Assembly: GCA_945893075.1 (NCBI GenBank)
Contig: CAMDDX010000001.1
Coordinates: 13,132 to 77,131, forward strand
DNA: 64,000 bases
Reading direction: 5' to 3'
Origin: Planctomyces sp. SH-PL62
Lineage (GTDB): Bacteria > Planctomycetota > Planctomycetia > Planctomycetales > Planctomycetaceae
The translations under genes and the position numbers were made by a program. The first letter of the stretch is position 1; each line of letters starts with the position of its first letter. Below are positions 20,789-64,000 of the stretch, in pieces. The notes beneath the pieces are model-generated. The model ran no database searches. It was not told where the DNA came from and worked only from the letters and a program-made list of their open reading frames with translations.

Positions 20789-20797
20789 GCCGCGCTC

Positions 20798-21237: not shown

Positions 21238-21322
21238 CTCGGTGTCCCGTCCTCGATTCCATCCACTTCCGCGTCTTGCCGGGAGAGTTTGCGTTCGACG
21301 ACTGCGCGGGAAGGAATTTGGC

Positions 21323-21421: not shown

Positions 21422-21547
21422 AGTGGGCGGTGAGGTGGGATGGCGGATCGAACGGTGAGACGGACGGTGCCACGGATCGGCTAGCCGCGAGTGTGAGCAG
21501 CGACGTGGTGGCTGACATTGATACAACCTCGAAAGTCGCGGGGATCG
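21417..21547. repeat. 131-bp repeat module S, copy 2
   Basis: See 19931-20061. Confidence 0.85.
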
Positions 21548-21576
21548 TGCTGCGGATAGTCGAACATGCCGCGCTC

Positions 21577-21927: not shown

Positions 21928-21998
21928 GACAAGTCTCTCCCACAAACACTCGGTGGCTCTGAACGAGAATCAATCTATCGGACACGCCCGCAGTCAGA

Positions 21999-22016
21999 CA
22001 AGACGCTTGCGTCTTG
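21999..22016. promoter_or_regulatory. Candidate operator palindrome, duplicate copy
   Basis: Same 8-2-8 palindrome as at 21220-21237. Confidence 0.3.
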
Positions 22017-22026
22017 CTCGGTGTCG

Positions 22027-23482: not shown

Positions 23483-23944
23483 ATGAATTCTGTCACCATT
23501 CGATTGTCGAAGCCTGCGTTCGATCGCTTGCAGCAAGCGGCTCGCCGGTCGCGGCGGAGCGTGGATGAGTACGCTTCGGAGATGTGTGCGACGATGGCCA
23601 CGGTTGGTCCCGGTGAATTCTTCGTACCGTTGGGAGACTGTCGTGGGTTGCGAATGAAACGCTGGAAGGACAGCCTCGCTGACATCGACGCGGCTCTGAA
23701 AGTGATGGAGTTTCTCAGCGAGGCTGACTTGAAGCGGGCCTTCAAGACCGTGCCCACCAAACAGAGTCAGCAGGAGATGGCCGACCTCAACGACAAGGCA
23801 CAAAGCGTCGGTCTGACGAAGGCCGAGAAACAGCGATCCGAAGAACTTCGCGAATACTTCGACCAGTGCCAACTCATTCGCGCGAACGCGGCGGCGGTCT
23901 TGAAGCAACGTGGCTTTGACGTCAATAAGTTGCTGCGACCATGA
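23483..23944 (+). CDS. Ribbon-helix-helix-like protein, putative partner of the downstream HNH nuclease
   Basis: MNSVTIRLSKPAFDRLQQAARRSRRSVDEYASEM has an RHH-like N-terminus and is followed by a helical tail. Its stop overlaps the HNH start (ATGA at 23941-23944). Confidence 0.55.
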   Translation: MNSVTIRLSKPAFDRLQQAARRSRRSVDEYASEMCATMATVGPGEFFVPLGDCRGLRMKRWKDSLADIDAALKVMEFLSEADLKRAFKTVPTKQSQQEMADLNDKAQSVGLTKAEKQRSEELREYFDQCQLIRANAAAVLKQRGFDVNKLLRP

Positions 23945-24369
23945 GTGCGGCTTCCGTCTCGAAAAAGCTGCGGCAGAAAGTCGCTCGGCGTGCCAAGCAG
24001 CGCTGTGGGTATTGTTTGGTGGCGTCTTCGATCACCGGCGTCGAATTGCAGATCGAACATTTGTGGCCCACGTCCAAAGGTGGTCTGACCGTCGAGGACA
24101 ATCTTTGGCTGGCTTGCGCGGAATGCAACCAACGAAAATCTGATCGAACGCGAGTCGTTGATCCGCTGACAAAGAAAGAAGTGCCGTTATTTAATCCTCG
24201 CCAAGATGGTTGGCAGGATCATTTTCGTTGGTCGGACGACGGAACCGAAATCGTCGGATTGACGGCCGTTGCTCGCGCGACGATCGTCGCATTGCAACTC
24301 AACCGGCCAGCTCGAATCGCCGCAAGGCGGCGATGGGTGAGCGTCGGCTGGCATCCACCGAAAGACTGA
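23941..24369 (+). CDS. HNH endonuclease (142 aa)
   Basis: CGYCL...LQIEHLWPTSKGGLTVEDNLWLACAECNQRKSD is a canonical HNH core with two Cys pairs. Confidence 0.8.
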   Translation: MSAASVSKKLRQKVARRAKQRCGYCLVASSITGVELQIEHLWPTSKGGLTVEDNLWLACAECNQRKSDRTRVVDPLTKKEVPLFNPRQDGWQDHFRWSDDGTEIVGLTAVARATIVALQLNRPARIAARRRWVSVGWHPPKD

Positions 24370-24669: not shown

Positions 24670-24687
24670 GCGGAGAGAGGGGGATTC
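24670..24687. repeat. 18-nt direct repeat (tRNA-Ser 3' end), copy 2, att-like
   Basis: GCGGAGAGAGGGGGATTC reads on the minus strand as GAATCCCCC-TCTCTCC-GC (T-stem 3' strand, acceptor 3' strand, discriminator). No remainder of a tRNA is found upstream of it. Confidence 0.6.
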
Positions 24688-25462: not shown

Positions 25463-25500
25463 GTGCATCGTGCTCCTAACTCCTAAGAAAACGCCCAACA

Positions 25501-28500
25501 ATGCAACTCACAAACTGGTTACGCGGCATTCCCCGACGGGTTCGTCGAGCAGTTCCTGTGTCACGTCGCCGGACCAGTCAGCGACCGAATCCGCTGACCA
25601 CGAAGTCGCACTGGGCAAGCTACGCAGAGTCGCTGGAATCGCGCACGCTGTTGTCCGGAGTGCAGACTTTCGGGGATGGCTTTGGCTCATTGAATCGCGC
25701 GAGTGGCGATGGGACGACGCTCGATTTCTCTGCAGTGTCGGGCGGTCTCGTCTTCACTGTTTCGGGTGATTCGGTGAGCGTGTCGTATGCCGACACGAAT
25801 CGCAGCGACCTGCTGACGTATTCTGCGGACGGACTGGGCTACTCGATCGTTGGCTCGCAGGGTAGCGATCAGTTCCTGGTGGTAAGTGACGGACAATTGA
25901 CGTCGATCGACGCTGGGCCTGGTGAGGACTCCATTCGGTTTGATTCGACGACCGGCGTCGCGCGGAGCGGGGCGGACACGATCGCAACTCGCAGCGACTT
26001 GTCGACCTTCACGTTGACGGGGATCGAGAGCTTGACCGGGCATGTCGCGCTGGGATCCGCCTTGCGAGGCGAGATCAATCAGGCGTTCGACCGCTGGACC
26101 GGGGTTGCGACGGAGTTCGTTCAGGGCGAAGTGTTGTCGGCCCAGATTCCGTTTTTGAATGTCTCGCTGGTTCAAGCACTCAACCGTGGCTTTGATGCGG
26201 CGGCAGTGACGGTCCCTTCGCTGGCGGATGCGAGGAACTATGCCCTCGATTTGCTGACGATCCAGACCGCGCCGCTCGCGAGTTTCGGTGACTTGGGGGG
26301 ACTCGCGAGTGCTTTGGAGAGCCAGTTCAACTCGGTCACGTCGGGCAGTCCTTTTACGGTCACGGCCGGGATTCATGATTGGTCAGAGCTGCGATTCGAT
26401 GTGTCGTTTAATGCCTCACGCTCGTTTGCGTTCGCTCCGTCGCTGTCGCCGGAAATCACTGCGGCGTTGGGAGCGGCAGGCATTGAGTTGTCGGCGTTCT
26501 CGAATCTCGATGTGCAGACGCGGCTTGGCGGTTCGGTCGAGGTCGGCATCCGACTGGATGGGTTGACCGCGCTGAACGGCGCGAGCGGGTTCGCTGATCG
26601 AGGTTTCCTGCGCGTGCATCCGCTCTCGGTCGAAGTGGATTCGAGCTTTGAGAACTTGTCGGTGGCAGCGGGACTTTCGGCTCAAGTGTTTGGGTCGGCG
26701 GCGACGGTCAATGTTGTGAATGGGACAGTGAATCTCGATGCGCGGGCGGAGTTGTCGCTCGATCCGAACGGGGCGGATGGCAGCGGGCGGTTTACACTCG
26801 CGGCGCTTGCTGCGGCACCGGCGGTTCAGTTTCAAGCTTCGGGAAGTCTCGATGCGCGGCTGCCGCTGAGCGCGACGCTCGGACAGTTCGACCTCAGCCA
26901 GTACGGCACGCCGATCCTGATCTTGGCGACCGACAGTTTGTTCGAGTACCGCGACGACCGTTTGCTGATTACGACGCCCGCCGTGTCGCTGGATGTGTCG
27001 ATCAATCCGGCGCTGGCCGAGCGATTGCTGGACCTGTTGGGACAGGTGCGTGATCTGGGTCAGAAGCTGCCGCTGGACCTCTTCAACAAAGAGATTCCGG
27101 GGCTTGGTCAGAGTCTCAACCAGTTGCTGACGAACAGCGCCTCGACCGTCGAAGCGGGCGGGCTGGGCGGGACGTTCAAGCTCAAAGACGCGGTGGGGCA
27201 TTACTTCTACAGCGATTACGAGTCGGCGACTGGCATCGGTTTGACGTTCAATTTGGGGATCTCGGTGCGTGGGATGCTCGAAGCGTTGAATCGCGCGCTG
27301 GCGAGCCTGACTCAAGTGAAGTTCTCGATCGGGGACTTCGATTGGTCGGACAAGAATCTGGCGGGGTTCGACTTCTCCGCGTTTCGTATTTCGGGCGGGC
27401 TCTCGTTGGACTTCCTGCGCGGGTTCAATTTCTCAGGAGCGGATCTGCGCGGTGTTAACCTCAGTGGTCTGGATCTGACTGGGATCGACTTCTCCGGCGC
27501 ACGCTTCGACTTCTCGACGAACTTTTTCGGATCGATCCTGCGGTGGGTCAACTTTTCGGGCTGCGATCTGCGCGGCGTCGATTTTTCGGGACTCGATCTT
27601 CGTTGGGCCGACTTCAGCGGGTCGTGGCTCGACGGCGCGAAGTTCAATTTCGCCCTCGCGTTCGATGTCAATTTTGCCAACATCCGGTTCTCGATCGGCA
27701 AGCTGCCGAACGTTGGCAATCTGCTGTCAAACTTTGATCTGACGAGCTTGTTCGGCGCGTCGAGCGGTTGGAAGAGGCTCTCGTTCGGGCTCGATCTGTC
27801 CGGCTGGTCGCTGAAGAACTGGAGCCGCTTCGATCTTTCGGGATTGGATTTTTCGGGCGTCAATCTGTCGGGGTTCAATCTCAGCGGCGTCAACTTGCGC
27901 GGCATCTCGTTTCATGGCGCGACTCTGAACTTCGTCGACTTCAGCGGCGCGTTTGGCTGGAACGTGCGTTGGGGGACGCTCGCCGGTTCGAGCAGCGTCA
28001 ACATTTCGGGACTGCTCCACAACGGGCAATTGCCGAGTTGGTCGTCGTCAACGGGCACCGCCCATCAGTGGGGATCGGGACTCGATCTGTCGGGCTTCAA
28101 TTTCTCTGGCTGGGATCTGTCGGGACTCGACTTCAGCGGCATCACTTTCAGCGGGGCCAACTTCAGCGGCGCGAAACTGTTCGGCGTTCGCTTCCCCAGC
28201 TTCGATGTCAATTTGAACTTCAGCTTTGCGGACTTCCGAGGCTTCGATCTCAGCGGACTGAGCGAGTTGCTGGGCAAGTTTCGCGGTGCGAATTTTTCGG
28301 GACTCGACTTCAGCGGCATCACGTTTGGCATCGGGTCGATCGACTTCTCCGGCGCGAACTTCAGCGGCTGTTTCAATCTGGGTGGCTTGTTCAGCGGGCT
28401 GTCGGGCAGCTTCCGTCGGCTGTTCAACGGCGTGAGCTTCGGTGGCGTCGACTTCAGCGGCTTGTCGTCGAGCATCAAGCTCAACTTCAAATTCGGTTCG

Positions 28501-31500
28501 TTCAAGGGAATCAACTTCGAGGGCGCGATCCTCGATGGGCTCGACTTCACGGATGTCGATTTTTCGTTCGGATGGTTCAAACGAACGTCCGTCAACGGCG
28601 CGAAGTTCGATGGGACGACGCTGCTGGGGACCGATCTGTCGGGCACGATCGGCGATGTCGCGTCGGCGGTCGGAGCGTTCTTTGACAAGCTCAGCAAGTT
28701 GCCGACCAGTTGGACGAGCAGTGCGTCGTTCATGGCGAATTTGAACTCGGTCGTGATCGAGGAGATCTTCGCGACGGGAGCGCCCGGCCCGGCGTTCGCC
28801 TTTTCGGGGGGCGTCAAGTTCAACAACAATCAAGTTGATCTCGGCATCCACTTGCAGGCCAAAATCGACCGCAGTTTCTCGACAGAGTTTTCGCTCAGTG
28901 GCGACGATCTGCCTCCGGCCGTGGCGGCGGTCCTGCCAACAATGGAGTTGTCGGGGACCGCGTTCGGTCGCGGGGTGCTGGCGCTCGACTTCGATCTCGG
29001 AGTGTTGCTCGGTCTGCGCGATACGTCGGTCGCCGGCCTCTTCACCGTGCCGCTGCCGGATGCGAGTTCGCTCGATCCGTACTTCAAACTCAACCGCTTC
29101 GATGTCGGTGCGAGTTTGGGAGTCTCCGGCTTGCACGCCTCGCTGGCCGTTGCGGGTTTGGGGAGCGTCGGTGTTGACGATGTCGCGCTGAGCCTCATGG
29201 TCGGCGGTCGGGTTGCGCTCTCGAACGCACAAGGGACCGATCGGCTGCGACTGTCCGACATCAAGGCTCTGCGCGCGGCTGATCCGACGAACTGGTTCAA
29301 GAATTTGATCGCGGTCACTCCGTCGGCGAAGTTCGATGCGGGCTTCACCGTGACGGTTGACTCGGCGATTCAAGTCGGCGGTCAGTCTTTCACGGCGGTG
29401 TTTGGAAACCCGATCGTCAAGCTCGCGACGGACCAGCTCTTCAAAATCGACGAACAAGGAGCCGCGCGGTTTCAAGGCCCGGCCGTGACGCTCGATGTTG
29501 CGTTGACGGCGACTCAGCGAGACATGCTGCTCGAAGTGCTCGACCAACTGCGCGGGGCGGGTGACGGAGCGCTCGACAGCGAGTTCCTCACGAAGACGAT
29601 TCCGGGAATCGGAAAATCGCTGAAGCAGCTCTTCAGCGTCTCGGCGGATGGCAGCGTGCTTCAAAGACTGTTCGCGCTGACGGATGCCGCTCGCGAGTAC
29701 TTCAACACCACGAATCTGCCGACCGACGGAAATCCGGTTGGTCCGGAGACAGCGACGATTCGCGGATTGGCGGCGGCTCTGAATGAGGCTGTGGCGAAGG
29801 CCGGTGCGATGCCGTTTCAGCCGGTGCAGCCGGAGTGGGCCGGAGCCAAGTTGGCCTTCACGAACTTCACTGGCCTGGACTTGCGCGGCTTCAACTTTGT
29901 CGGTGCCGATCTGCATGGCGCGAACTTCGCCGGAGCCGATCTGACGGGCGTCGATTTCTCCGGGGCGAATCTGACGGGCGCGACGTTCGCCACTTATGAC
30001 GGCAACGGGCAGGTCACTTCGGGAGCTGTGTTGCGCGACGTGAACTTCAGCGGTGCGCAGGTCGCGGGGTTGTCGTTCAAGGGACTCGATTTGCGTGACG
30101 CGAGCTTCGTGGACACGGACGTGCGCGGCGTGAATTTCACGGCGGCCTCGCTGATCGCGGTGGACTTCGCTCGGTCGGTCGTGGATGCCACGACCTCGGT
30201 GGCCGACGCGTTCTTCACGGGACCGATCGTCGCGGAACTCGCGGCGGCGAGCGACTACTTGCAGGCCGTGCGGCTCGATCCCGCGAGCGGACTCGCGGAC
30301 TTGGCCGGCTATCTGCTGGATGGCTTCGATCTGTCGGCGCTCGACCTGTCGCGCGTCAACTTCAGCAATGCGCGATTGGCCGGAGCGAACCTGCGGGAAG
30401 CGGTGCTCGATGGGGCGACGTTCGTCAATACGGTGCTCGATCAAGCCTACATCTTCAAAGCGAAGTTCAGTTCCGGCCTCAACATTCCGGCGCAGGCACT
30501 GGCGTTCGGCCAGAACGTCTTGGCGAACGCGGGTGACCTCTCGGCATTGGTCAAGCAGGTGCAGTCGGGCACGAGCTTGGCTGGTTTCAATCTTTCGGGC
30601 TTCGATCTCTCGGGAATCAACTTCGCGGGGATCGACCTCGCCGGCGCGAAGCTGGCCGGGGTCAAACTGGCGGGTGCTCAGTTGGCGGATGCGATTCTGT
30701 CCGACGCGACGGACTTCACCGGCGCGGCGCTGGAAGGAATCAGCAGTCTGCCGAACGTGCTCAAGGGGAACTTCGAGCGTGCCGGTCTGACGGGCATCGA
30801 CTTCACGGGCAAGGTGCTCGATCACTTGAACCTGTCGGGAGCGAATTTCACGGGCGCGATCCTGACCAACGCATCGCTCGCGCTGGCCGATCTGCGCGGC
30901 GCGGTGCTGGTCAACTTGCAGCAAGTCGCCGCTGGTACGGGGCAACTTGTCGCGGCCGAGATCGACGCGCTGAAGACCTCGCTGACCGGCGCGGTCTATG
31001 ACCAACTGACGCATTTCGACGCCGCTCAAGCCGCGACGCTGCAAGCGGCGATGGCTCCGTTTGAACTCGACAATGTCTTTGAAGAAGGGGCGTCCGGGCC
31101 GGCGTTCGCGTTCCTCGGTGGGCTGACCGTGACCGAGCAAGGGATCGGGCTGAGCCTCAATCTGCAAGTCAACATCGACACCGAAGTCAGTCAGTCCTTC
31201 AGCCTCAGCGCGGCGGATCTGCCGGAGGTGGCTCAGAGCATTGTGCCGGATTTCAGTCTGTCGGGATTGGCGACCGCGCGACTGGTGACGGCGCTCAATG
31301 TGGATCTGGGAGTTGATCTGGCTCGCGGATCGGGATCGACGTTCGCCGTCGAGACCGACACCTGGCTGCGGCTGAATCGCTTTGATGCCGGTGCTCGCGT
31401 CGCGATCACGGGACTCGACGCGGACCTTTCCGTGGCCGGGCTGGCGAACGTGCAGGTGCGTGACGGCGTGGTCGATCTGCGCGTCGCGGCTCAAGTGAGT

Positions 31501-34500
31501 TTGATCGATCCGGATGACGCGGACGGAACGCATCGACTGACCTCCGCCGATCGCGCGGGAGTTCCCTTCAGCGAACTGGTCGATGCGGCGACGACCTCGA
31601 ATCTGCGCGGCCGATTGACGCTGAACGCACAAGGGGCGGGCTTCAATCTGAATGACTTCGGCGTGCCGACGTTGATCTTCCGAGCTCCCGATCTGATTCA
31701 TCGCGATCTTGAGACCGGCGTCTTCACCGTCTCGAAGCCGGATGTCTTTTTGGATGTGCGGATCGGTACGGCGCTCAAGGACAAGATTCTCGATGTGCTC
31801 CAAACGATTGACGACACGGGCAACGGCGCGCTGTCGGCGGATGTGATCCAACAGCAGATTCCCGGACTGGGCAAGAGCATTGGCGAGTTGATCGGAATCG
31901 AACTGGACGCCGACGGCCGCGCGCAGACCTTCAAGCTGCGCGATGCGGCGGAGGAATACCTCGACGGCTTCACTTATGTCGCCAATGATTTTCCGAGCCT
32001 GTCGGGCCTGACCGACACGCTGCGCTTGCTGTTCGCCGGAGATTTCTCGATCCCGTTCAACACGACGCGGACGGATTGGTCGGGCTTCGATTTCTCAGGC
32101 TTCGACTTCTCCGGCTTCAGCTTCGATGCCCTGCGGAACTTCAACTTCAGCGGCTGCAATCTGTCGTTCGCCAATTTCCGAGGACTCGATCTCAGCGGTA
32201 TCAACTTCAGCGGCGCGAACCTTTCGGGAGCCTTCTTCGACATCTTCAATCTCTTCAACGGGATCAACTGGAGCGGTGCGAACCTGACGGGCATCAATTG
32301 GACCGGCATTGATCTGCGAGGGTTCGACTTCAGCGGCGTGGATCTGTCCTTCACGAACTTCTCCGGCTTCGATCTTTCGGGGATCAACTTCAGCGGCGCG
32401 AATCTGCGTGGCATCAATTTCAGCTTCGCGAATCTGCGTTGGTGCAACCTCATTGGCTGCGATCTGTCCGGGGCGAACCTGAGCTTTGCGTTCGCGATCG
32501 ACGTCGATTGGTCGAGCTTCTTCCGCTCGGACCTGACGTTCGATTTCAACACGAACTTCACGGGGATGATCGTTGATCTCGATCTCCACAGCCTGTTTGG
32601 CGATCTGTCACTGGGGATGAAGCGGCTGAACTTTGGGCTGGATCTGTCGGGCTTCAACTTGAATTGGAGCGGCTGGGATCTGTCGGGCATCGACTTCAGC
32701 GGCATCAACCTGTCGGGGATCAATTTCTCGTTCGCGAATCTGCGCGGCGTGAAGTTCAACTTTGCGAACTTGAGCCTCGCGAAGTTTTCGTTCTCGTTCG
32801 CGTTCGATGTCGATTGGACCGGCAGCACCGGCACCGTCGCCGACTTCGGCGGCATGATCTCGAAGATCAAAGCCGGCAGCCTGCCCAGCGCATCGACCGG
32901 GGTTGCGTTCCACTTTGTCAGTGGCCTGACCGTGTCCGGGTACAACTGGAGCCGTTGGGATCTGTCGGGGATCGACTTCAGCGGCTTCCACTTCGACAAC
33001 ATCAACTGGAGTTGGACCGAGCTGACCGGGGTCAACTTCACCGGTGCGACGTTCGGAGCCAACCTGAACTGGACCGGTTCGATTTGGAAGGGCGTGACGC
33101 TCCCGAGCGGAACGTTGCGGGGCCTCTTCCGCGACGTCGATTTCAGCGGCTTCACGTTCAACCCGGATATCAATTGGAACCTGTCGGGCTATCTGCCGGA
33201 CTTCTCGGGTATCAAGCTGTCAGGCTCGATCGGTTCGTTCAACTTCTTCTCGAAGATCTTCGAGGCGTGGAACGGACTGGGGCTGAACGCGCCGAAGCTC
33301 AACTTCCGTTGGGCCGACTTCGATGGCCTGGATCTGACCGGATTGCTCGACGGCCTGACGTTCCAATTCGGCAACTTCAAAGGGGTGTCGTTCAAGGGCT
33401 TCAAGCTGCCGACGTTGAGCCTTGGTGATTGGGACTTCTCGGGGCTCAATCTGTCGTTGACTCGTTGGACGGATTTCACGTTCAGCGGCGGCATCGGTGG
33501 GGACACGAAGCTGAAGCTCGATCGCTCCGACGTCGGCGGCGCGGAGATCGAGGGGCTGCTGGGTAAGTTGTCTTCCGCGGCGGGTGCGTTCTTCGACGGG
33601 CTGACTTCGTTCGGTAGTTTTTCGACGTCGTTTGTGACGCAGCTCGGCATGAACGAGGTGGTCGTTGGCGATGTGCTGGGGACGCCGCTGTCAGGGCCGC
33701 CGTTCAAGTTCACGCCGATCTTTCGACTGAACGGCACGGACGACGTCACGGTCGGGTTCCAGTTGATCGTCAATCAAGATCTGCAACAGCGATTGGACTT
33801 CGCGATTGGACTCGACGATCTGGGTCTGTCGGGCATCGCGGCGATGGGGAGTCTCGATGTCTCGGGGACGGCGGCGGCTCGGCTGGTGATCAAGCTCGAC
33901 ACGGAAGTGCTGGTGAAGATCCCGTTGCAGAATCAGGAGATCGCGGGCGTCACAATACCGACGCCGCAGTTTGCCAACGCCGAAGTGCTCGTGGACATCA
34001 ACCGCTTCGATGTCGGTGCCAGCGCGGGGATCTATGGCTTCAGTGCCGAACTGGGACTCGGCGATTCCGGTTCGGTGCATCTGCGCGACGGGCAACTGAG
34101 TCTCGACGTGGCGGGGCAGTTGTCGATCGCTCCCGCGGCGGACACGAACATGGACGGCTACTTGAGCTTGTCGGAAGTCCGCGCCCGCAGAACGGCCGAT
34201 CCCGACAATTGGTACAAGCAGCTTCTGAATCTCAACCTGGGAGCGGACTTCGAGGCCCATTTTGCGATCGACGTCAATCAGGTCAATCTCTTCGGCAGCG
34301 GCGTGATGCTGAACGGTACGCTGATGGCCGACATCGACCGCAACGCCACGTCGCCCGAAGACGCGGTGACTCCCAGCGGAATCGCGCTGACGGTGACGAT
34401 CGAAAACGGCTCGTTGAGCCTGCCGGGATTCATCGACCTCAACGGCGACTTCGCGCTGCAGAGCACTGCTCAGAACGTGACGCTGGCGGATGGCACGATC

Positions 34501-37500
34501 GTGCTGGCCGACATGCTGCGAATCGGCGGCAACGATGTGAATGCCTTCGTCGGCATGAATGGTCCGTATCTCGTTGACAGCGACGCCGACGGGGACATTG
34601 ATGGCGACGATGTCCCGAATGCCGACGCGGTTGGGTTGGCGTTGAGCGATGTTGATTTCGGCGCGGCGTTGATCTCGGCGCGGCCCGGGCAAGCGGGACT
34701 GGATGGCGTGAAGTGGAAGTCGTTGCAAGCCACGGCGGGATCAGTGGCGCTGGTGGGAATCCCGGATGTCACACTCGTGGCCGCTGGGCTGGAGGTGCAG
34801 GTCAATCAAGTCAGCGGTCTCGAAGCGGGAGTTGATCAAAGTAGTCGCGTCGTTGATTTCTCGAACGTCCCGCTGACCGTGATGACCGGGCCGACAACGA
34901 CGGTGTCGCTGGATCTGGATGGCGGGCGCGGGCCGTTGCAGCGCGCGGTAGGACATCTCGAAGTGGCGGTCGCGGACTTCTTCGCAGTCGAGGGTGACTT
35001 CGCCTTCGAGAAGTCTGTTTCGTTGCTGACTCTCGATGACGGACAGCATGTCGAAGCGGAATTGCTGACGATTGGCGCTGCGGGCGCGTCAGCGTTTGCG
35101 GGGCTCAACGGCGGGACCGCGGATCAGCTCGGGCTGAGTTTGAGCGACGTCGAATTCGCATTGGTCGTGGCGGCCGATCAATCCGTACCGTCACGCTCGT
35201 GGACGGCACTCAAAGCCAACGCGGGCAGCATCGAGTTGTCGGGGTTGCTTTCGATCTCGGCGACGGGCGAGAACGTTTCCGTCGAGATCAATCGCGCGGC
35301 CAGCGACGGGTCGCTGATTGACTTCCTCGCGCAGCCGCTTGAGATTCCCACGGGACCGACATCGACTCAAACGCTGAGCATGGATGGCAGCGTCGGCGCG
35401 CTGGTTCGCGCCTCGGGCAGTCTCGACGTGACGGTCGGCGACTTCGTGCAGTTCTCCGGCGATGTCGCGTTCGAGACCAGCCGCCGCGACAACGTGAAGC
35501 TCGCGGACGGCAGCTCGGTCAATCTCGATCAACTCATCATCGGTACGAACGGAGTCTCGGCATTCGTCGGCAACAACGGCGGGACCGACAATGCGATAGG
35601 CTTCCATCTGGAGGGTGTCGATCTCGCGCTCGTGCTCAGTTCCGATGCCGCGCAGCCCGACGACAAATGGATCTCGCTGCAAGCGGAAGCACGCACGGTC
35701 GAGTTCATCGGTTTGCCCAGCATCACCGCGAGCGGCACGGACCTCAGCGTCACGTTCAATCAGGCGTCGTCCGGCGACAACGTCATCGACTTCACCGCTT
35801 CGCCGCAACTCGTCACGACCGGACCAGGCAGCTCCGTCACGCTCGAGATGCCGGGTTCAGCGGGCAACCTGTCGCGAGCGACCGGGCACCTCGACCTGGT
35901 GGTCGACAGCTTCTTTTCGGTCAGCGGCGACTTCGGATTCGAGCAGTCGATTCGCACGGTCAAACTTTCTGACGGCAGCGAGATCATGGTCGATCTGTTG
36001 AGCCTCGGAGCGTCTGACACCGACGCCTTCATCGGTCTCAACGGTGGCAGCGAGAACGCGATCGGCTTCGAAGCGACCGGAGTCAAGTTCGGACTGGTGC
36101 TCGCGACCGACCGCACCAACGCAGCCCGCGAGTTCCTGCTGCTGCAAGCGACTGTCGAGAGCGCGGCGTTCTCCGGTGGAGACGGTTTGAGCATCGCGGT
36201 CAGCGAGATGTCGGCAACGATCGCTGACACCGCAGACTCCGACCTTGTGCTCGACTTCGACGACACGCCGCTCGTGATCGCGACCGGCGCAACATCGACG
36301 GTCACGCTCGACTTCGACGGCGCACAAGGCGAGATCGTGCAGGTCGAAGCGCATGCGGCCCTCGACCTCTTCGGCTTCGTGCAAGTCTCCGGCGACTTCG
36401 CGTTCCGGAAATCCGCAGGCTCGATCACGCTGACCGACGCCTCGAAAGTCGAAGCGGACTTCCTGGCCATCGGAGCGACCGGGGCCGACGCCTTCATCGG
36501 CTTGAATGGCGGCACCGATGGAGCACTCGGCTTCGCGGCCACCAATGTGGAATTCGCCCTGCTGCTGGCCACCGATCAAGAGGATGACGCCCGCTCCTGG
36601 ACGACGCTGCTGGCGACCGCCGGTTCGGTCGGCTTCGTCGGCAGCGACGACCTGACGCTCAGCGGTACGGACCTCAGTGTCGAGTTGACTCGCGCCAGCG
36701 CCGGCGCACCGCAGATCGACTTCCTGGCCGAACCGGTCGAAGTCGCGACCGGCCCCAACAGCTCCATCACCATCGACCTCGATACAACGGCCGGCCCGAT
36801 CACCCGCGCGGCCGGGCATCTCGATCTCGATGTCGGCGGCTTCTTCCAAGCGACCGGCGACTTTGTTTTCGAGCAAACCACGCACGCGTTCACGCTCTCA
36901 GATGCCAACACCGTTCAGACCGATTTGCTGCTGCTGGGTGCCAGCGGCGTCAGTGCCTTCGTCGGCAACAACGGCGGCACGGCAGACGCGGTGGGCTTCG
37001 CGATTCAGGACGTTGATTTCGCTCTGGCCATCGCCAGCGATCAAACGAACTCAGCACGCAGTTGGACCGCGCTCAAAGCGACGGCCGGCAGCGTCGGCTT
37101 TGTCGGCATCGAAGGGATCACCGCCACTGGCAGCGATCTCGACGTGGAAATCAATCACGCCTCCGGGACGAACGCGGTGCTCGATCTCAACGAGGCTCCG
37201 CTGCTGGTCCGCACCGGCCCCGTCGATTTCCTGTCGCTCGACTTTGACGGAGCGTCCGGCGAACTGACGCGCGCACAAGGACATATCGAACTCGACCTGT
37301 TCGGCTTCTTCGCGATCGACGGCGACTTTGGTTTCGAGAAGTCGGTTCGCACCGTCAATCTCTCGGACGACTCGGTCATCAGCGCCGACGTCGTCACGTT
37401 CGGTGCGCGCGGCGCGTCGGCCTTCGTCGGTCTCAACGGCGGCACGGACGAGCGACTTGGCCTGGCCGTGGACGGCGTCGATTTCGGGCTGGCTCTGATG

Positions 37501-52500: not shown

Positions 52501-55500
52501 AAGTTCGAATTCAAGGCCGAGTTCGACGTCACACTGGTCACGATTCTGCTCGGTCCCGTGCCGTTGTCGATCAAAGCGTTCGGCAAGTTTGCAGCGTCCG
52601 TGGATCTGGCCTTCGGCTACGACACCTACGGCATCAGGACGGCGATCTCCACCGGCAACTTCGCGTACGTTTTAGACGGCTTCTATGTTTCGGACTTCAC
52701 CCTGCCGGACTTCAAGAATGGCAAGGTCGTCCCAAACACCGGTGGCACGGATAAGGATGAATTCACGCTCCAAGTGGTCGTCGGCCTGGCTGCGGAAGTG
52801 AATCTCGGACTCATCGCAGCCGGTCTGGAAGGTGGCATCGAACTGAAGGTCGGCGCGGACCTCAACGACATCGGTCTCGGGCTCCTGACGAAGGACGATC
52901 TCGGCAATGTGACCAACACAGAGTTTCTCTCCGACGGCAAGATTCGCGGGACTGAAATCGCGACGATGTTCAACTTCGACAGCGATGACGACGGCGAGGG
53001 CGATGGTTTCAGCAACCTCTTCAACCTCGTCGCCAAGCTCGACCTGTTCGCGAATGCCTACGCCAGTACCGTCATCACGGGCCGGATCTTCGACTTCGAG
53101 CTCTTCCGCACGACGCTCTATGAGTATGAATACAAAGCACCGCCCGTGGTGCCGACCCTCGCGAAGAAAGTCGGCTCGACGCTGTACATCAACGCGGGTC
53201 CGCAAGCCGGTGATCGAGAGTACTTCGACATTGATGACGGCAACGAGAATTTCATTATCAGCGGCTCCGGCGGTACGGTGAATGTCGAGTTCGATCCCAC
53301 TCCGTTCACCGAAAAACCGGATCGTCCAGCGAACGCACCGAAACGCTTCCTCGGCTGGTACCAGACCTACACCGGCATCACAGAAGTCGTCGTTGACATG
53401 GGCAACGGGGACGACACGTTCAACGCCACGCGACTGCGGGACGTGACGGTCGATGTGAAGGGTGGAGCCGGCAAGGACAAACTGTATTCCGGCTTCGCGG
53501 GCGGCATTCTCGACGGCGGCGACGGCGACGATCAGCTCTTCGGCAACACGCTCGACGGCAATTCCGCGGCGGAAACGCTGCGGGGCGGAGCGGGCAGCGA
53601 TCGCCTCAATGGCGGTAACGGCAACGATCGGCTCGACGGCGGTTCCGGCAACGACGTCCTGTCGGGCGGCGATGGGGATGACACCTTCGCGTTCGGGGAC
53701 GGCTACGGAGTCGATCGCTTCAACGACGCTGCTGGCAACGCGAGCTTCGATTTCAGCGCGATGACCATCTCGGTCACCGGCACATTGAATTCGCGCGGCA
53801 TCGAAGTCTTCCAGGATGAAGAGAACCGCATCCGAGCCTCACGAGCGACCGTCACGGCGGTCACTCTGGGACAGGCCGACGACCGGCTGTTCGTCAAAGA
53901 GTTCGCCGAACGAGCGATCTCCGTCAGCGATGTCGGCGGCAACGATCAGTACCGCGTCACGATGGGCAATGCCGGTTCGACGAAAGCCACCGGGACGCTG
54001 TCGATCTCGGACAACAACGGCCTGTTCGACGACATCGTGCTCGAACAGACGCGATCCGGAAGTCCGATCCAGCTTGATTCGTTCCTGGTCACCAACGGTC
54101 GCGAAGTCATCAACTACAACACGGGCGTCGAACGCCTGACGATATTCGGCAAAGCGGGAGCCTTCGATTATGAAACTGGCGACATCATCGACTTCGGCGG
54201 CAAGGTGACCTACACGATCGACGCAGCCGACAGCGCCGTCGATCTCAAGACCACGGGCCTGCGAGTCATCACCGATCAGTTCGTCATCAGCAACGAGCTG
54301 AAGGCCGGACATGTGCTCGTCGAATCCTTCAAAGACATCAACGTCGCCCAGCGGATCAACGCCGGCGACAACGGCTACATCGACCTGCGAGTCTTCAAGG
54401 ACGGGGGCGATATTCATCTCAACGCCGACCTGTTCGCGTCGGCGGGCGATGATTGGAACGGGACCGGCTCCGGCTACATCCGGCTGGTCGCGCCGGACGG
54501 ATCGATCACGAACGACAACGACATTTTCATCAAAGGGACGAACGCGCATCTCATCGTGAAGGCTTACGAGTCGGTCGGCACGTTCGCCGCACCGCTGCGC
54601 ACCGAAGTCGGCAGCTTGACGGCCGCGACCTCGGCGGAAGCGGTCGGCAACGTCGTCGTCATCGAAGCGGACGACTTGATACTGACGAGCACCGATTCGC
54701 ACGGCTCGCTGGTGAATTATGGTCTGATTATCCCGAACCTCGCCGATCCCCCGAAATGGGTCACGACGGTCACTTGGGACGACGACGCCACACCCGATTG
54801 GCTCAATCAAGTCCGCGATGGCAACGACATCTACGCCGTGACGAGCGGCACCGGGATCATCGACATCAGGCTGCTCGGACAAGACGCCTTGCTGACATTG
54901 CAGTCGGGCAGGATCGAAGCTCGCGCCGCCGGCAAGACGACCTTCCTCACGGCCGATGACTTCGATTTCTCCAGCGGCGAGAACCAGATCGTCGGACCCG
55001 GCGTGCTCGATATTCGTTCGACACACGACGAGATCAACTACCGGCTCGGTTCGGCGGGCGAGAACGTTCAGGGCGTTGACGTATCGACGCTCACTCGCGA
55101 CGGCACGGCGCACATCGGAGTCCGCGACTTCGCGGCGATCGGCGATGATTTTTCGGAGGTGCTGATCGGCCACGCGTTCGTCAACACCAGCGACATCGGC
55201 AACACGATGACCTTCGGCGACATCGAAGACGATCCGGTCATCAAGTTGGGCTTCATGCCGCGCAGCTCGAAGGCCGCGCTCCGCAACCTGACCAAGTTCT
55301 ACGCCGACACGATGACGATCGCCGGTGACGTGCAGGCACCCGACGATACCATCGAACTCCATGCCCATCGTGCCGAAGTCAACGCCAAGAACCTGCATGC
55401 TCAACTGCAAGCCAACGATTCCGGCGTCACCGCGCAGAACGTCTGGTTCGATCTCGCCGAGCAACTGCAACACGGCGGCTGGATCATCGGGGAAGAGCGC

Positions 55501-58500
55501 GTCGATATCGACGTGCTCAGCAGCGACGGCACGCGGCCCTACTTCGCCTTCCCGGATGAACTGGTCAGTCTGAAGTCAGATGTCGGCAGCCGTATCGAGT
55601 CGCTCAATCCCAACAGCAGCATCGACATCAACACGAACCAGTCGATCCAAATTGCCGGACTGGTCGAGGTGTACGCAGCCGCTTCACGCGCCGACCTCAC
55701 GACCGCCACGAAGCTGACGGTTCTCGAAGGGGGCGTCGTGGCCGGTCGCGATGACTTCAACGTCCTGACGCTCAATGCGGGTGTGACCGTTTCGATCAAT
55801 CCAGGTGGAGCCGTCACCGCTGGGGCACGCTTCGACGACGTCGACGGCACGCCGGTCGCCGTGCAGACCGGAGCCGGTGCGGACGCGATCCTGAATTCGC
55901 CGCACGAACTGTTCATCGGCGGCACGGTCACGACCTCCGATCAAATGCAGCTCAACTCCGGCTCGCCAGAGTTCGATCACACGGCGTACTTCAACGGTTT
56001 CGCGGACGTCGATCCGCAGCATCCGCTGATCGGACACAGCCAGTACGGCATCCTGCTGACCGGGACGCTCACGTCGCTGGCGGCAAACACCGAACTGAAA
56101 CTGGTCTCGAATGCCGACATCATTTCGCGCGGTAACATCAACGTCTTCGGAGCGAATTCCAACTTGCTGATTCAGTCGGATCGGTTCGTCTATCTCGAAG
56201 GCTTCACGGATGTGAGAAAAAACGCTCGCATTTACGGCGGCGTCGAGACCAATGGCACCGTCTACGATGACGCTGACCCGATTCTCGGCAGCAGCGTTTA
56301 TGTCGCGACAACCTCGCGCACCGTGACTCGCGCTGCCGGCAGTTCGATCGATATCCGCGGAGCGAAAGATGTGGACCTGCTGGGCGCGATCGTTGCCGGC
56401 GGAACGATTGGAGAAAGCGGCGTCACCTTCTCCGGTCCAAGTTCCAGCATCACGGTCACAGCGGGCGAGCAAGTCTTCCTGGACAGCGGACTGCTGGCGT
56501 CCGGTACGGTGACGGTCAATTCGGGAACTCCCGGAGCGGACGACACGCTCGCCGCGCTCTTCCCAGGCCAGACGCTTCCCGCCGACGACGGCAACGATCG
56601 ACTGAGCCTCGTCATCACAACGGCCGGCGGCATCAACACCGTCGGCGATACTACGGACAACTCCGGCGGCGGCATCGTCATCAATGCCAGTGGCAACATT
56701 GAGATTCTCGGCAACCTGACTGCCGGAGCGGCAGTCACGCAACAATTCGATGTGGACGGCAAATTCCTCGGTGAGACCTTCACTTACTCCGACGAGCCGA
56801 CGACTCTGACGATCAACGCGACGGGCCGAGCCTTCCTCGGTGGCCATACGCTCAATGAAGCGCAGGAACTGGTCCAGACCGGCACGTTCCTGCGAGCCGC
56901 GCACGCGATGACGATCAACGGCGGCAGCTTCCGCACCGGCGAAGGCTTGCTGGTTCATGCCGCCAGCGAATTGACCGTCAACGACAAAGACGGCTTCATC
57001 ACGCTGACTTCGGAGCAGAATGCGACCGTGCTGGGCCTGTTCGTGGCCGGCGGTCGCATCGACACCGTGCGCGATATTAACGGCGGATATCTTGGCCGAG
57101 TTCCGGTGTACTTCGATGGCAATTCGGTCATCACCCTGCGAGCGGGCGGGACAATCGAAATCGGTCAGGACATCGTTGCCGGCCAGAAGATCAACATCAT
57201 TGGCGGCAATGGATCTGTCAGCAGCGGGCCGGGTCTGAAAGTCCAGGGCAGCGGGCGATTGATCACGCTGCGAGAAAACAGCGAAATCAATCTCAACGCG
57301 CCGGGCGAAGTCGTCATCCAACCCCCCGGACACATCAACGAGATCGAAGCGGCGGGCTTCATCGCCATCAACGACGGCAAGCTGGCCAGCGACATCACGT
57401 TCGGCCTGACCGTTGATCGAGTGGACTTCTCGTATCGCGGCACGGTCACGATCACGGCCGAGCAAACCGCCAACAACACCGGCATCGCCGATGTCGTCGC
57501 CGACCTGCAGGCGGCCATCGAAAACGGTGCCTTCACGATCATTGAATCGGACAATCCGAACTACGTCGTCGATGCGGCCTTCATAGAACTCGCCGATGAT
57601 CCGAGCACTGACGGCATCGTCGATCCGGATGTGAAAGTGAAACTCCGCAACGGCAAGCTGCTGCTGACGGCACCGTATGAAGTCATCTTCAATCCCATCG
57701 AGCTGCTCGCGGCCATCACCGGAGCGGCTGAGTTACTGGCCGCGCTCGGTTTCGACACGACCGACGGACCGCTGACCACATCGCGGCTGTATGCCATCGA
57801 CGCGGCCCAGCCCGGTTCGACGGTCAACATCGGAGCGCCCGACGGCCCGAACGGCAAGCTGTCGATCGGCGGCAAAGTCCGAGCGCACTCGGCCATCAAT
57901 CTCTACAGCGGCACATCGCCCGACGGGGTCGACATCGACCTGGGCCCGACCGGAGTGCTCGAAACGGTCAACGGTTCGATTCAATTCACCGCCGGGCAAT
58001 ACGGCGACATTCAAGGTGAGATCATCGCGGGCGGAGCGGGTTCAGACATCATTCTCGATGCCGCGCAGACGCTGCGGATTCGCGGGCACCTCACCGCCAA
58101 CGACGACATCCTGCTGATGGCCGGAGTGGCACTCGTCGAGCATCAAGTCAGCGTGCAGATCGACGGCACCAGCAAACTGATCTCCGCTGGCGGCGGCGGT
58201 GACGGCGAGATCGTCGTCACTGGCTACAACGACGTGGTCTTCAACGGCGTCGTCGGCAGCGGCAGCAATCAGTTGACTCGATTGGAACTCAACGCCGAGT
58301 ACGGCAACTTGACGATTCCGAAGACCTCGGGCCGCATTGAATCCGACGCGCTGATCTTCCTCAAGGGTGCGATCGTCGATGTGCAAGGTGTTGTTCACAG
58401 CACACTGACAACAGCGAGCACCAGCGACTACGAAATCACGATCGACGCCAGCGACACGGCGATGATCAACGGCGATCTGCAATTGACCGGCTCGCTGCTG

Positions 58501-61500
58501 ATCGACGCGGAAAACCTCGTCGAAGTCTTCAACACGACGATCGCCATCACCGAACCCGGACAGCACGTTCGCTTCACCGGCGGCAACATCCGTTTCGGCA
58601 AAGCCTCGACTGATACCAATGGCGATCCGGTGCAGCTCGGCGCGCTGGTCACGGCCGTGGATCTCATCGAGTTCCACGCGACCGGACTCATCGAGATCGG
58701 TTCTGGATCGGTCATCGCGACCAGCGCCGAGAACAGCGTGATCGACCTGCAAGCCGGCAGTCTGGCAATCGCCGGTTCGCTGCTGGCCGGAGCGACGGTC
58801 GCAGAACCCGCTCTCGGCGAGAGCGGGCTACACTTCGGCGGCGCGGGTGCGGACATCACGATCACGGCGAAGGAAACTGTGTCACTGGGCGGCCTGGGAA
58901 TCATCGGCGGCGTTTCGCAGACCGTCGGCGGCACATTGGCCGCAACCGGAGACATCTCCGTCAACGTCCGTGGCGGATCGGAGGATGTCAGCTTCTCGAT
59001 GAACGGAAGCAGTTCGCTCCGCACCGTCGCTGCCACCAACGAGGCTCCCGATCTCAGCCACACGATCACGCTGACGACCGATCAGAACATTCAGATCGAC
59101 GGCACAATCTCTGCGCTGCCCGAAGGTGGCGACATCACGCTCACGTCGAGCGAAATGATTCTCATCAACGGATTCGTCAAAGCGGACGACAAACTGACGC
59201 TGAACGGCGGCAGTGACGAGACGGGAGTAGGCTTGATGGTGCAGCCGTTTGTCTTCGACGGCGGCAACCGAGTCAGCGGCGGTACGCTGACGACGAATGT
59301 CGGCGGCACGATTTCGCTCGCGACGACCCAGAAGATGGTGCTGGGTGGTGTGATTGGCGAGGTTCACTCGGAGATCGCCGACGCGGTGTCAATCAGCGTC
59401 ACTCAGGCGAGCGAAGTGATGGTCACGGGCGTTTTGAACGCGGCCGAACGCATCGACATCCGTGCGACGAGCATCGCCATCGCTCCGGACGCTGTGCTTC
59501 AAACACGAACCGCTGGCGGCATCGTCGATCTGCGAGCGACTGGCAGCTTCATCATCGGAGCCACCACGGTGGGCACGCAGCCCGCGCTGATTCAAAGCGA
59601 CGCGCTGGTGCATCTGGTCGGTGACACGCTCAGTCTCGACGGTCAGATCATCGGCACCAGCAGCACGGGCCGAGTGGTCATCAACGCAGTCAACTCGGTG
59701 ACGTTCTTCGGCGCGGTCAACGCGGAGAATTCGCTGGAAGTGAATGCCGGTGTCGGAGCGAATTGGACGACGGAGCAACTGCTGGGCACGATCGTGCTGG
59801 CGGACCTGAGCGGTGGCGACATCACGATCAACGGCGGCACGCTGACCAGCAGCGGTGAATCGCACCTGCTGGCTGGCCATGACGTCAATGTGACCGGCTC
59901 GATGAGCGTTGGCGGCGACCCGGTTCCGGTGCGTCGCCCGATCATCGTCACGACACCGCGGACGATCGAAGTCATCACGGGCACGCGGCAAGTCGCGGTC
60001 GGCAGCATCCTGGTCCCACTCGTCACGTTTGTCTCGACGACGACCACCGAGCAAGTCGGTACCGAAAGCGTCCGTGTCGGCAGCGCGTTCAATACCGCCG
60101 ACGTGACGCTGACGCAGTTGGGCTACTACAACGAGAACGCGCCGGTCGCGACACGATTCCGCAAGATATTTGTCGAAGGGATCGACTACTCGAACGGGAG
60201 CATCAATTGGAACAAGGTCTACGATCCGCTCACTGGCGACATCAGAACGCTGTCGACCTTCACCGCAGCGTCGGGCACGACGGAGTTTGGAGCACTCAGC
60301 GATAACCAACGCGATTCCGTGCTCATCCAGCTCGGCTATCGCAAGTACTACAACGTCAGCTTCGCCAATCTGAAAACGAACAACACCATCAACGGCATCC
60401 CGACTCAAATCGCGTGGCACCCCACCTGGGAAACCGCCTTCACCACGCAGACGGTGGATACCAGCTACGTCAACGCCAGCGGCGTGTTCGTCAGCGGCCC
60501 GTTGCTCACTTTCAAGCAGTACACCAACACCACTTCCGCGCGTTTGCCGGTCGATGGCTGGCGCGACAAATACGTCCGGTTGCCAGCCGGAGCGGAATCG
60601 GACATTTTACGAGTGGTCTCACAGGGCGAAGCCACAACGTTCCAGGAAGATGTCGGCGACTACTACGACCAAGCCCGCGTGCTCTATTACCAGGACAAGT
60701 CGGCACATACGTTTAACCAAGATGGAGACTTCCGCAGAACGGACTTTGATAATTCCCCGGTCCGCTGGGATGTGAGCTATTTCGATTCGGGCAAACGTTG
60801 GTATTCGATCAACGACGGCCGCACGGCCGGCAATATGGTCAACGAGTTCCAAAATCCACTCTGGAATGCCGGAGGCAAATCCCAGTCGGGCGACATCAAC
60901 GGTCGCTCGATTAACGTGCAATCTGGCTACGTCGCGACAACGCGTCTGATCAATAACCAGTCTGTCTACAGCCTGCGAGACATGTTTCGCGTCGGCGATC
61001 TTGAGCGGCTCTTGTTCGACGTCGAATTCAATTTCCGTCTTCGTTGGAATGAAGGCGATGGGCCCGGAAGTCCAGAGATCGGTTTCACGGTCGTTGTCTA
61101 TAACGATGGAAACGAGGTCGCGCGGCGGAACGGCTCTGAGAATGATCGGGAGGAAGGCGAGTTCTCCTTCACCCTCAACCCCGACCTCAACACGCTGCCC
61201 CGTCAGCCTCGTGACAAGAGCTATTCGGTCTTAGTCGACTTCAACGAAGACGATGACCCGTTCTTTCAAAATGTCACATTCAACGTGAGCCTGAGTTCGT
61301 CAGTCGATGAGCGGAGAACTGCTGGGCTCGATGATGGAGAATACGGACAGGTCATCCTCAGCGTTTCAGGCGACGCCGGGCAATGGGTCGATATCAACGA
61401 CGTATACGAGCTGTTCCGCGACGATCTTTACAACTGGGAGTCCAAATTTCTCGACGTCGTCGATACCCGCTTGCAGTTGTCGTATCAGTTCGTCACCAAG

Positions 61501-64000: not shown

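Follow-up and report, generated by a model that had tools for sequence, protein, structure and literature searches.

The locus described here raises the question of whether a reading frame that stays open over tens of kilobases is a single functional bacterial gene and, if so, what kind of protein it encodes. The window, by which we mean the whole analysed stretch of 64,000 nt (deposited as Planctomyces sp. SH-PL62; GenBank assembly GCA_945893075.1, contig CAMDDX010000001.1, positions 13,132 to 77,131 of the forward strand), has in frame +1 a last upstream stop codon, TAA, at 25477-25479 and thereafter a first start codon, ATG, at 25501. Translation of 25501-63999 gave 12,833 codons with 0 stops, in agreement with a preliminary description of this DNA made from the letters alone. 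The window holds the 5' 83% of one genuine protein-coding gene of an uncultured member of the Planctomycetaceae, and its product is likely to be an exported, calcium-binding, acidic, beta-rich and rod-like surface fibre or adhesin. The features of the gene, with amino acid (aa) positions counted from ATG 25501, are as follows:

25501..64000, plus strand: giant open reading frame (ORF), first 12,833 of 15,489 codons, running off the window end; 0 stops, GC content at third codon positions 0.785, independent gene call.
25501..25503, plus strand: ATG, the probable true start codon, first start past TAA 25477-79; a gene caller chose GTG 25558.
25501..26037, plus strand: N-terminal domain, aa 1-179, common to the close relative L047/P0150 (62% aa identity), where it stands directly before X repeats.
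25627..25662, plus strand: motif AESLESRTLLSG, aa 43-54, after a basic stretch; Planc_extracel-like (PF07595, 12 bits), putative export or sorting signal.
26038..34404, plus strand: lineage-specific region of ~2,790 aa, aa 180-2968, with three ~790-aa super-repeats (30-43% identity in self-BLAST).
27385..28341, plus strand: pentapeptide block 1, aa 629-947 (Pfam Pentapeptide, period-5 signal).
29821..30924, plus strand: pentapeptide block 2, aa 1441-1808 (Pfam/NCBIfam, period-5 signal).
32101..33084, plus strand: pentapeptide block 3, aa 2201-2528 (Pfam/NCBIfam, period-5 signal).
34405..46050, plus strand: X/Y repeat region, aa 2969-6850, ~15 X units of 155 aa alternating with Y spacers of ~560 aa.
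46543..48582, plus strand: short repeat zone, aa 7015-7694, including ~75-aa units (self-comparison).
46798..64000, plus strand: conserved body, aa ~7,100 to the window end, colinear across phyla.
53458..53745, plus strand: RTX calcium-binding nonapeptide block, aa ~9,320-9,415 (HemolysinCabind, E 1.3e-12).
55501..58800, plus strand: most conserved core, aa 10,001-11,100, 70-93% identity to three relatives.

The remaining five frames contain 57-762 stops over the identical 38.5-kb span. Even the frame with the fewest stops implies an expectation of about 57, and the chance of a stop-free frame is thus about e^-57. The GC content of the giant ORF at codon positions 1, 2 and 3 was 0.60, 0.46 and 0.785, and its codon usage agreed with that of the upstream housekeeping genes (relative synonymous codon usage, r 0.89-0.96) as well as these genes agree among themselves. 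Recent acquisition of the gene from a foreign source was also considered and is unsupported by codon or tetranucleotide usage, both of which are native-like. With 38.5 kb open in the window and ~46.4 kb on an independent contig, the gene is a giant gene by the criterion of Reva & Tummler as used in PMC5177795, a single uninterrupted ORF of more than 5 kb.

Past 25.5 kb, the ORF track supplied with the sequence lists short plus-strand and long minus-strand ORFs only. The giant ORF is absent because the track omits ORFs that run off the source end, which bears out the early suspicion that it went unlisted for want of a stop in the window. The minus-strand ORFs, already suspected of being shadows, are antisense shadows of the giant gene: 12 of the 13 that reach at least 300 aa share one antisense phase, their GC content peaks at position 1 of their own codons, which corresponds to position 3 of the sense codons, and they are rich in Arg and matched no Pfam family.

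A contig assembled from another sample (ERZ27280223:k141_343827, 76,829 nt) matches window positions 12245-33333 at 99.991%. On this contig a gene of 15,470 aa was called from a GTG (window 25558), and it ends inside the contig, ~12.8 kb before its end, so the gene does continue beyond the window as had been expected. Counted from ATG 25501, the product comprises 15,489 aa (~46.5 kb, about 1.6 MDa), of which the window covers 83%, and the stop codon is predicted at the window-equivalent position ~71,970. The L047 protein begins with MRFKNWLLNLPLRVR, which parallels MQLTNWLRGIPRRVR of the window protein; this conservation at the protein level upstream of GTG 25558 makes ATG 25501 probably the real start.

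Within the giant ORF no exact repeat of 30 nt or more was found, and the best DNA repeats of at least 100 nt are at most 75% identical; at such divergence the repeats would be unable to mislead an assembler. One alignment of 9.6 kb (87%) joins window 34415-43991 colinearly to L047, a contig of a close relative from an unrelated SPAdes assembly, and the order of repeat units is thus conserved. The objection that the region could be an assembly artefact, raised at the outset, is excluded as far as sequence data allow by the divergence of the repeats, the second assembly at 99.99% and the colinearity of L047. Over 3,193 X/Y codons, the ratio of non-synonymous to synonymous substitution rates (dN/dS) against L047 was 0.18 at a dS of ~0.39, indicating that the X/Y region is under purifying selection. 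Coding statistics, colinear homologues, purifying selection and the independent assembly all support the early proposal of a single real gene.

Within aa 1-80, the sole Pfam match was PF07595 'Planc_extracel', in which residues 43-54 align with profile positions 8-19 of 20 (E 0.18). In the 150 best X/Y-containing representatives, the regular expression L[ED]xRx[LMVI]L[SAT] matched 16 times in 231,477 residues, and 16 of the 16 matches lay in the first ~55 residues. The matches follow a basic stretch and share the consensus ...LExLExRxLLSADP, and most representatives that start with M and do not carry the motif are visibly internal fragments. L032 has LEALEPRLLLSA at the ORF start, and a verrucomicrobial family member starts with ...FKLEALEPRLLLSADPG. 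A scan of ~430 kb of planctomycete DNA with the regular expression found the motif in the giant protein only, which is uninformative on its generality. The motif thus appears to be a positional N-terminal signature of these giant proteins, and it would probably act as an export, sorting or retention signal. The preliminary description had linked such a motif to the N-termini of many large planctomycetal extracellular proteins; with 16 of 16 N-terminal matches this was right in kind, at a PF07595 score that stays sub-threshold (12 bits). The LExRxLLS motif of planctomycetes and of the wider Planctomycetes-Verrucomicrobia-Chlamydiae (PVC) group can now be given a clean positional definition on proteins without a signal peptide, which makes the question of how such proteins exit the cell testable.

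Each ~790-aa super-repeat of the lineage-specific region consists of a non-pentapeptide module and a pentapeptide-repeat block. The region belongs to the Pentapeptide family PF00805 (E 2e-109, 356.7 bits vs a 20.2-bit cut-off, 15 stretches in a scan of aa 1-4000) and shows autocorrelation at lags 5, 10 and 20. Its repeats are of the A(D/N)LxG type with F or L at the centre position, which implies a quadrilateral beta-helix. The NCBIfam equivalogs HetL (193 vs 260), Qnr (102 vs 240) and MfpA (89 vs 360) scored under their cut-offs, and the generic Alr5209-type model alone passed (229 vs 125). In the close relative P0150/L047, aa 1-179 (62%) are joined straight to aa 2969-4812 (88%) and the pentapeptide region is absent; likewise, none of the 21 long X/Y-containing representatives showed homology to the ~2,790-aa region. 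In the window organism the region is contiguous in two independent assemblies, with 99.99% identity in contig L009 up to aa 2611. Pentapeptide-repeat beta-helices may serve as structural modules of a megaprotein in one strain lineage while being missing from its close relative.

The 5' part of the gene seems to have a recombinant or paralogous history. This is suggested by a fragment at L047:1751-3522, which is 91% identical to giant aa 150-466 and lies upstream of that gene's own start, and by the dS against L047, which rises to 1.1 over the N-terminal 179 codons from ~0.39 elsewhere. Possible origins of the 5' end are a two-gene fusion in the window lineage, recombination between paralogues or a low-coverage chimera. 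A neighbouring gene encoding a pentapeptide-TIR protein was considered as donor of the insert and rejected, as its similarity (28-42%) is that of generic repeats only.

In the X/Y repeat region, seven X units in tandem are followed by groups of 3+3+2, and each Y spacer is made up of ~5 small alpha/beta modules of 75-100 aa. In an AlphaFold2 (AF2) model of one super-repeat (aa 3755-4792), the X units were predicted with a local confidence score (pLDDT) of 85-90, each with 6-7 antiparallel strands of 15-20 residues; the Y modules were modelled as beta-beta-alpha-beta-beta at pLDDT 50-80. Of 1.84 billion representative proteins, 855 contain X/Y modules (254 at E<=1e-30), and many of these 855 run to thousands of residues. 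Internal repeats are confined to aa ~400-7,700. The early statement that the protein is repeat-rich wherever translated therefore holds for this part and fails for aa 7,800-12,833, in which self-BLAST detected no internal repeats.

The RTX block is the sole database signal in aa ~7,800-12,833. It contains nonapeptides of the RTX type (GGxGxDxUx), and its sequence matches in the PDB are the RTX domain of CyaA, lipase and the R-modules of AlgE. For the core, AF2 with a 7-sequence alignment gave a mean pLDDT of 83.9 and a predicted template modelling score (pTM) of 0.78. In the model, triplets of short beta-strands form a long solenoid into which an alpha/beta domain is inserted, and the top Foldseek matches (HxuA, EtpA, Ag43, phage tailspikes and polysaccharide lyases) were without exception right-handed parallel beta-helices. 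The core is therefore confidently modelled as what would be a right-handed parallel beta-helix rod carrying an inserted alpha/beta domain. Downstream of it, aa 11,650-11,980 (nt ~60,450-61,440) are hypervariable; identity to relatives falls to 17-49% or is lost altogether, and the length of this stretch is 321 aa in the window protein vs ~586 aa in the homologue L001.

Hidden Markov model searches of the 12,833 aa matched Pentapeptide and HemolysinCabind and left the rest without a named family. Pentapeptide and the one RTX block being the sole Pfam/NCBIfam matches, most modules indeed lack a family name, as was first thought: about 9,800 aa, searched in ~1,000-aa pieces, had no Pfam or NCBIfam match at E<=1. 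Structure prediction by module, as outlined above, covered the core (beta-helix, pLDDT 83.9) and the X/Y super-repeat (X at pLDDT 85-90). The composition is of the extracellular type, as the protein has no transmembrane-like segment, is acidic (1,480 D+E vs 728 K+R in 12,833 aa) and is poor in Cys (5 in 12,833 aa).

Relatives were sought in the GTDB species representatives with a degenerate pattern derived from the trimmed core alignment. The scan returned 25 loci, among them metagenome-assembled genomes (MAGs) of Planctomycetaceae at 75-76% identity, MAGs of Lentisphaerales, Verrucomicrobia, Brocadiia and Rubripirellula, and many filamentous cyanobacteria at 40-44%. Cyanobacterial isolates with the core include Nostoc flagelliforme FACHB-838, Cronbergia UHCC 0137, Calothrix CCY 0018 and Anabaena minutissima FACHB-250. 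At most of the scanned loci the ORF was open across the entire 21.7 kb fetched (at least 7,240 aa with both ends open), which applies to at least 15 relatives, and uninterrupted giant ORFs persist even at 41-45% GC. From aa ~7,100 onwards, single-frame colinearity was observed with L024 (62-70%) and L030 (50%), and the cyanobacterial L036, L043 and L046 are colinear with the body at 30-37% over ~4,400-5,600 aa. Altogether, these comparisons point to a new, unannotated family of giant proteins that appears to be common to PVC bacteria and Nostocales and to share a colinear body of more than 5,700 aa.

In a database of 5.8 billion protein clusters, the exact window protein is absent, and searches with the core or with the last 1,200 aa each returned no more than a handful of fragmentary proteins with source names such as 'hypothetical' or 'calcium-binding protein'. 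The last 500 aa of the window protein, run against GTDB genomes and JGI metagenomes, gave no matches. In the literature, we found no paper on such a cyanobacterial/PVC family, nor on pentapeptide repeats inside giant proteins. Beyond the point that corresponds to the window end, L024 continues with Big_12, Cadherin, Big_9 and 10 RTX stretches, and the last ORF of L001 contains Cadherin_4, Big_9, PKD_4 and a weak HemolysinCabind match.

Some homologues are cut into consecutive ORFs (L001/L026, L002, L003/L004), with L002 heavily fragmented, and gene callers list these as several 'hypothetical proteins'. In L001, L003 and L004 the splits are frameshifts within continuous homology and not gene boundaries; split homologues may reflect either sequencing errors or genuine decay. 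Two of the loci with core homologues (L026 and L027; JAYTAK010000781.1 and JAYSPO010000942.1; 68-70% identity, 57-58% GC) are titled 'Candidatus Kuenenia sp.', a label that looks doubtful since both sit among the Planctomycetaceae matches.

More than 90% of bacterial giant genes code for surface proteins or for polyketide synthases and non-ribosomal peptide synthetases (Reva & Tummler 2008, as cited in PMC5177795). Pfam and NCBIfam scans of all 12,833 aa revealed no domains of the latter kind (condensation, adenylation, ketosynthase, acyltransferase or carrier). The surface fibre or adhesin that we favour would be built in series. Its basic N-terminus with the LExRxLLS motif of Planc_extracel type would probably provide the export, sorting or retention signal. 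A lineage-specific extender of three pentapeptide-repeat quadrilateral beta-helices might then act as a rigid spacer, followed by ~15 X beta-meander units and strings of small alpha/beta Y modules as further rigid spacers. The non-repetitive body of more than 5,700 aa, with the RTX block and the ~1,100-aa parallel beta-helix rod, would probably be the functional part that makes binding or contact. Beyond the window, by proxy from L024 and L001, immunoglobulin (Ig)-like and cadherin domains and a dense RTX array may follow. The data show that the gene is real, together with its length, module anatomy, conservation, purifying selection, fold classes and the strictly N-terminal place of the motif, whereas extracellular location, a fibre or adhesin role, calcium-dependent folding and the export route are what we infer.

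A number of points weigh against this interpretation. The Planc_extracel match reached 12 bits vs a cut-off of 25.5 bits, and formal membership in that family is therefore not established. No classical signal peptide or hydrophobic core was found in the first 100 aa (maximum Kyte-Doolittle hydropathy over 19 residues, 1.2). Genes for the ATP-binding cassette (ABC) transporter, membrane fusion protein (MFP) or TolC of a type I secretion system (T1SS), or other secretion genes, were found neither upstream in the window nor flanking 8 family members, which leaves room for unlinked genes; the sole ABC protein in the window is a 258-aa ATPase 14 kb from the giant gene. The domain scans cover aa 1-12,833, and any T1SS signal, anchor or toxin would be expected in the C-terminal 2,656 aa, which lie outside the window. 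The X/Y region had no Pfam match and no significant fold match in the PDB by Foldseek. For the core, no PDB match was significant either (best E 0.03, none at E<=1e-3), so its fold class is the sole structural inference to be drawn. Finally, the pentapeptide-repeat proteins studied so far are mostly small DNA mimics or lumenal proteins, and a structural role of the blocks in the giant protein is an assumption.

A more specific version of the same interpretation is that the protein is a giant T1SS (RTX) adhesin of the LapA/MpIBP/SiiE kind, which would be exported C-terminus first via ABC/MFP/TolC, fold outside the cell under the influence of Ca2+ and be retained by its N-terminus. Known giant T1SS RTX adhesins (LapA, MpIBP, SiiE, FrhA) are megadalton, acidic, Cys-poor proteins without a Sec signal peptide, in which a repetitive extender is followed by distal domains and RTX repeats. 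The window protein has in common with them its size, its acidity, the very low Cys content, the RTX block and the missing N-terminal Sec signal peptide, as expected of T1SS substrates. The layout, with a long extender leading to distinct distal domains and then RTX, also fits, since the continuation of the closest relative carries 10 RTX stretches after Ig-like and cadherin domains. In contrast to these adhesins, the extender is made of pentapeptide beta-helices and X/Y modules instead of bacterial Ig-like (BIg) repeats, the RTX block in the window is internal and 6,000 aa away from the C-terminus, and no T1SS ABC, MFP or TolC genes are linked to the giant gene or to 8 family members. The strictly N-terminal, conserved LExRxLLS motif is not known to have a counterpart in the known RTX adhesins. 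Thus, a T1SS adhesin in this narrow sense is possible without being probable.

Alternatively, the protein might be a contact-dependent delivery or predation fibre (CdiA/TpsA-like or Omnitrophota-like), in which a beta-helical shaft would present a C-terminal toxin or lytic domain to other cells. The nearest folds of the core belong to the TpsA adhesins HxuA and EtpA, aa 11,650-11,980 vary among relatives, the gene adjoins a strain-variable breakpoint and defence-type genes (see below), and Omnitrophota giant genes have been implicated in predation. Against this, the 12,833 aa contain no two-partner secretion (TPS), toxin, immunity or lytic-enzyme domain; the TPS domain (Haemagg_act) was missing from the Pfam scan of aa 1-4000 and, for aa 1-420, even at E<=10. 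In addition, the visible C-termini of relatives show Ig, PKD, RTX or nothing, and the body is colinear from Planctomycetes to Nostocales, unlike fast-swapping toxin tips. We consider a delivery fibre unlikely. Very unlikely is an ORF that is artefactual or non-functional (mis-assembled repeats, a recent two-gene fusion, or an open, decaying pseudogene): the L047 fragment of aa 150-466 upstream of a separate start, with the pentapeptide region missing, does fit a two-gene ancestor, and the L001, L002 and L003 homologues are broken by frameshifts, but the ORF has no exact repeat of 30 nt or more and repeats of at most 75% identity, two independent assemblies agree at 99.99% over 21 kb with one calling 15,470 aa, repeat order is kept over 9.6 kb in an unrelated SPAdes assembly, 0 stops stand against at least 57 expected, dN/dS is 0.18, the frame is unbroken over 21.7 kb in at least 15 relatives, codon usage is the same as in housekeeping genes, and even a gene that arose by fusion in the past would be a single functional gene now.

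The surface fibre or adhesin reading can be widened into a joint proposal, which as a whole we regard as rather doubtful. According to it, an undescribed cross-phylum family (PVC and Nostocales) of megadalton extracellular proteins would share the colinear body of more than 5,700 aa and new fold modules, especially the X beta-meander. The N-terminal basic stretch with the LExLExRxLLSADP signal may define a dedicated route of export or anchoring other than Sec, Tat and T1SS. Members would grow by wholesale capture of modules, such as the ~2,790 aa of pentapeptide beta-helices, and strains would gain or lose the present gene at a tRNA-Ser hot spot.

With respect to size, the early claim that the protein is among the largest in bacteria is fair, although such a size has precedents: 7,478 proteins in BV-BRC have at least 10,624 aa, Omnitrophota proteins reach 85,804 aa, and for PVC phyla, proteins of at least 10,000 aa are described as 'frequently detected' (West-Roberts et al. 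2023, bioRxiv 10.1101/2023.11.21.568195). In a survey of 29 planctomycete genomes the largest gene had 36,239 bp, and genes of more than 30 kb occurred in 2 genomes (Kohn et al. 2016, PMC5177795). Size alone is therefore notable and not a record, given that planctomycete giant genes are known and Omnitrophota proteins are much larger. Like the planctomycetal giant genes of PMC5177795, the present gene consists of one ORF of great length, lies where gene content differs between strains and has adhesion-type Ig-like, cadherin and RTX domains, here by proxy from relatives. Unlike those surveyed, it exceeds 36,239 bp with its 46.5 kb, is mostly without annotation of the InterPro/Pfam type and has a body conserved outside the phylum.

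Other known systems resemble single parts of the protein. TpsA/FHA/EtpA exoproteins and autotransporter passengers are the nearest structural neighbours of the core with its predicted long right-handed parallel beta-helix, whereas the window protein has neither a TPS domain nor an autotransporter barrel and its helix is 10,000 aa away from the N-terminus and contains an alpha/beta domain as an insertion. Qnr, MfpA, HetL and PipB2 also have Pfam Pentapeptide repeats and the implied quadrilateral beta-helix, but are stand-alone proteins of ~200-350 aa and not blocks of ~320-370 aa embedded three times in a 15,489-aa protein. The Omnitrophota giants (bioRxiv 10.1101/2023.11.21.568195) likewise exceed 10,000 aa, stem from the PVC supergroup and from metagenomes, are largely unannotated and have large beta-helical architectures. 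They are, however, 2-5 times larger, with SecA-like, dockerin or lytic domains, transmembrane anchors and a proposed role in predation; none of these features was seen in the window protein. New here are the cross-phylum family, modules without a significant fold or sequence match, a motif that is sharply N-terminal in proteins without a signal peptide, and the strain-specific 2,790-aa pentapeptide insert.

Bacteria pay a high cost for producing giant proteins. Such proteins are frequent in the PVC group, and almost none of them has been characterised. The present gene contributes ~9,800 residues of confidently coding, selectively constrained sequence without family annotation, including a 155-aa module without a fold match in the PDB. 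As the conserved body is also present in culturable cyanobacteria, experimental work may be possible.

The giant gene starts 800 nt to the right of a breakpoint between strains. L008, L010 and L011, all from other samples, are identical to the window up to exactly 24687 and then diverge, and the giant gene is missing from this locus in at least 4 contigs. A tRNA-Ser(TGA) gene is cut by the breakpoint in its T-loop; this gene is intact in L008, L010 and L011 and reduced to an 18-nt remnant in the window and in L009; no intact tRNA-Ser was found in the window. The left boundary would fit a tRNA-integrated genomic island (the 3' remnant here, an intact tRNA at this spot in other strains), with no integrase seen and at native-like composition, and the breakpoint appears to be a strain-variable recombination hot spot. 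The neighbouring features are:

24670..24687, minus strand: 3'-terminal 18 nt of the tRNA-Ser(TGA) gene, strain breakpoint (alignment, divergence of L008/L010/L011).
20156-20788, minus strand: PtuB-like HNH nuclease, defence-type gene in the 7-kb segment described below.
23941-24369, plus strand: PtuB-like HNH nuclease, defence-type gene in the same segment.
22245-23333: pentapeptide+TIR protein, in the same segment.
18938-19414: PDC-M32A-like ORF, in the same segment.

A second tRNA-Ser(TGA) remnant of ~70 nt was located at 17653-17721. The ~7-kb segment 17653-24687 between the two 3' remnants has a lower GC content (0.56-0.59) and looks like a decayed, tRNA-integrated defence islet without an integrase. 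It contains a direct duplication of 486 nt (20761-21246 and 21540-22025, 95% identity), giving two paralogous 116-aa ORFs on the minus strand for which neither Pfam nor PADLOC returned a match. Further upstream, 15 kb from the giant gene, two S26 signal-peptidase paralogues stand in tandem (6490-7956 and 7978-10080); at 488 and 700 aa they are long vs the typical ~250-320 aa. A link of this pair to the processing of motif-bearing giant proteins would be pure speculation.

Pan_kinase (L008) and a BMC gene (L011) were tried as guides to the right flank of the giant gene and neither led there. The BMC gene was found in unrelated neighbourhoods, and the exact Pan_kinase occurs only on contigs of at most 37 kb, hence not on the 76.8-kb contig with the giant gene. 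A 107-nt stretch, consisting of tRNA-Ser(TGA) and 19 nt, is identical at two or more loci, one beside Pan_kinase and one beside the BMC gene (L008:12426-12513, L011:7349-7436, L012-L021 at ~9760-9866, L013:6303-9640), and one left flank is joined to either the Pan_kinase or the BMC locus in different samples. In GCA_014193005.1, an element with Phage_integrase and Resolvase abuts tRNA-Ser. The tRNA-Ser copies appear to be hot spots of recombination and integration in this species.

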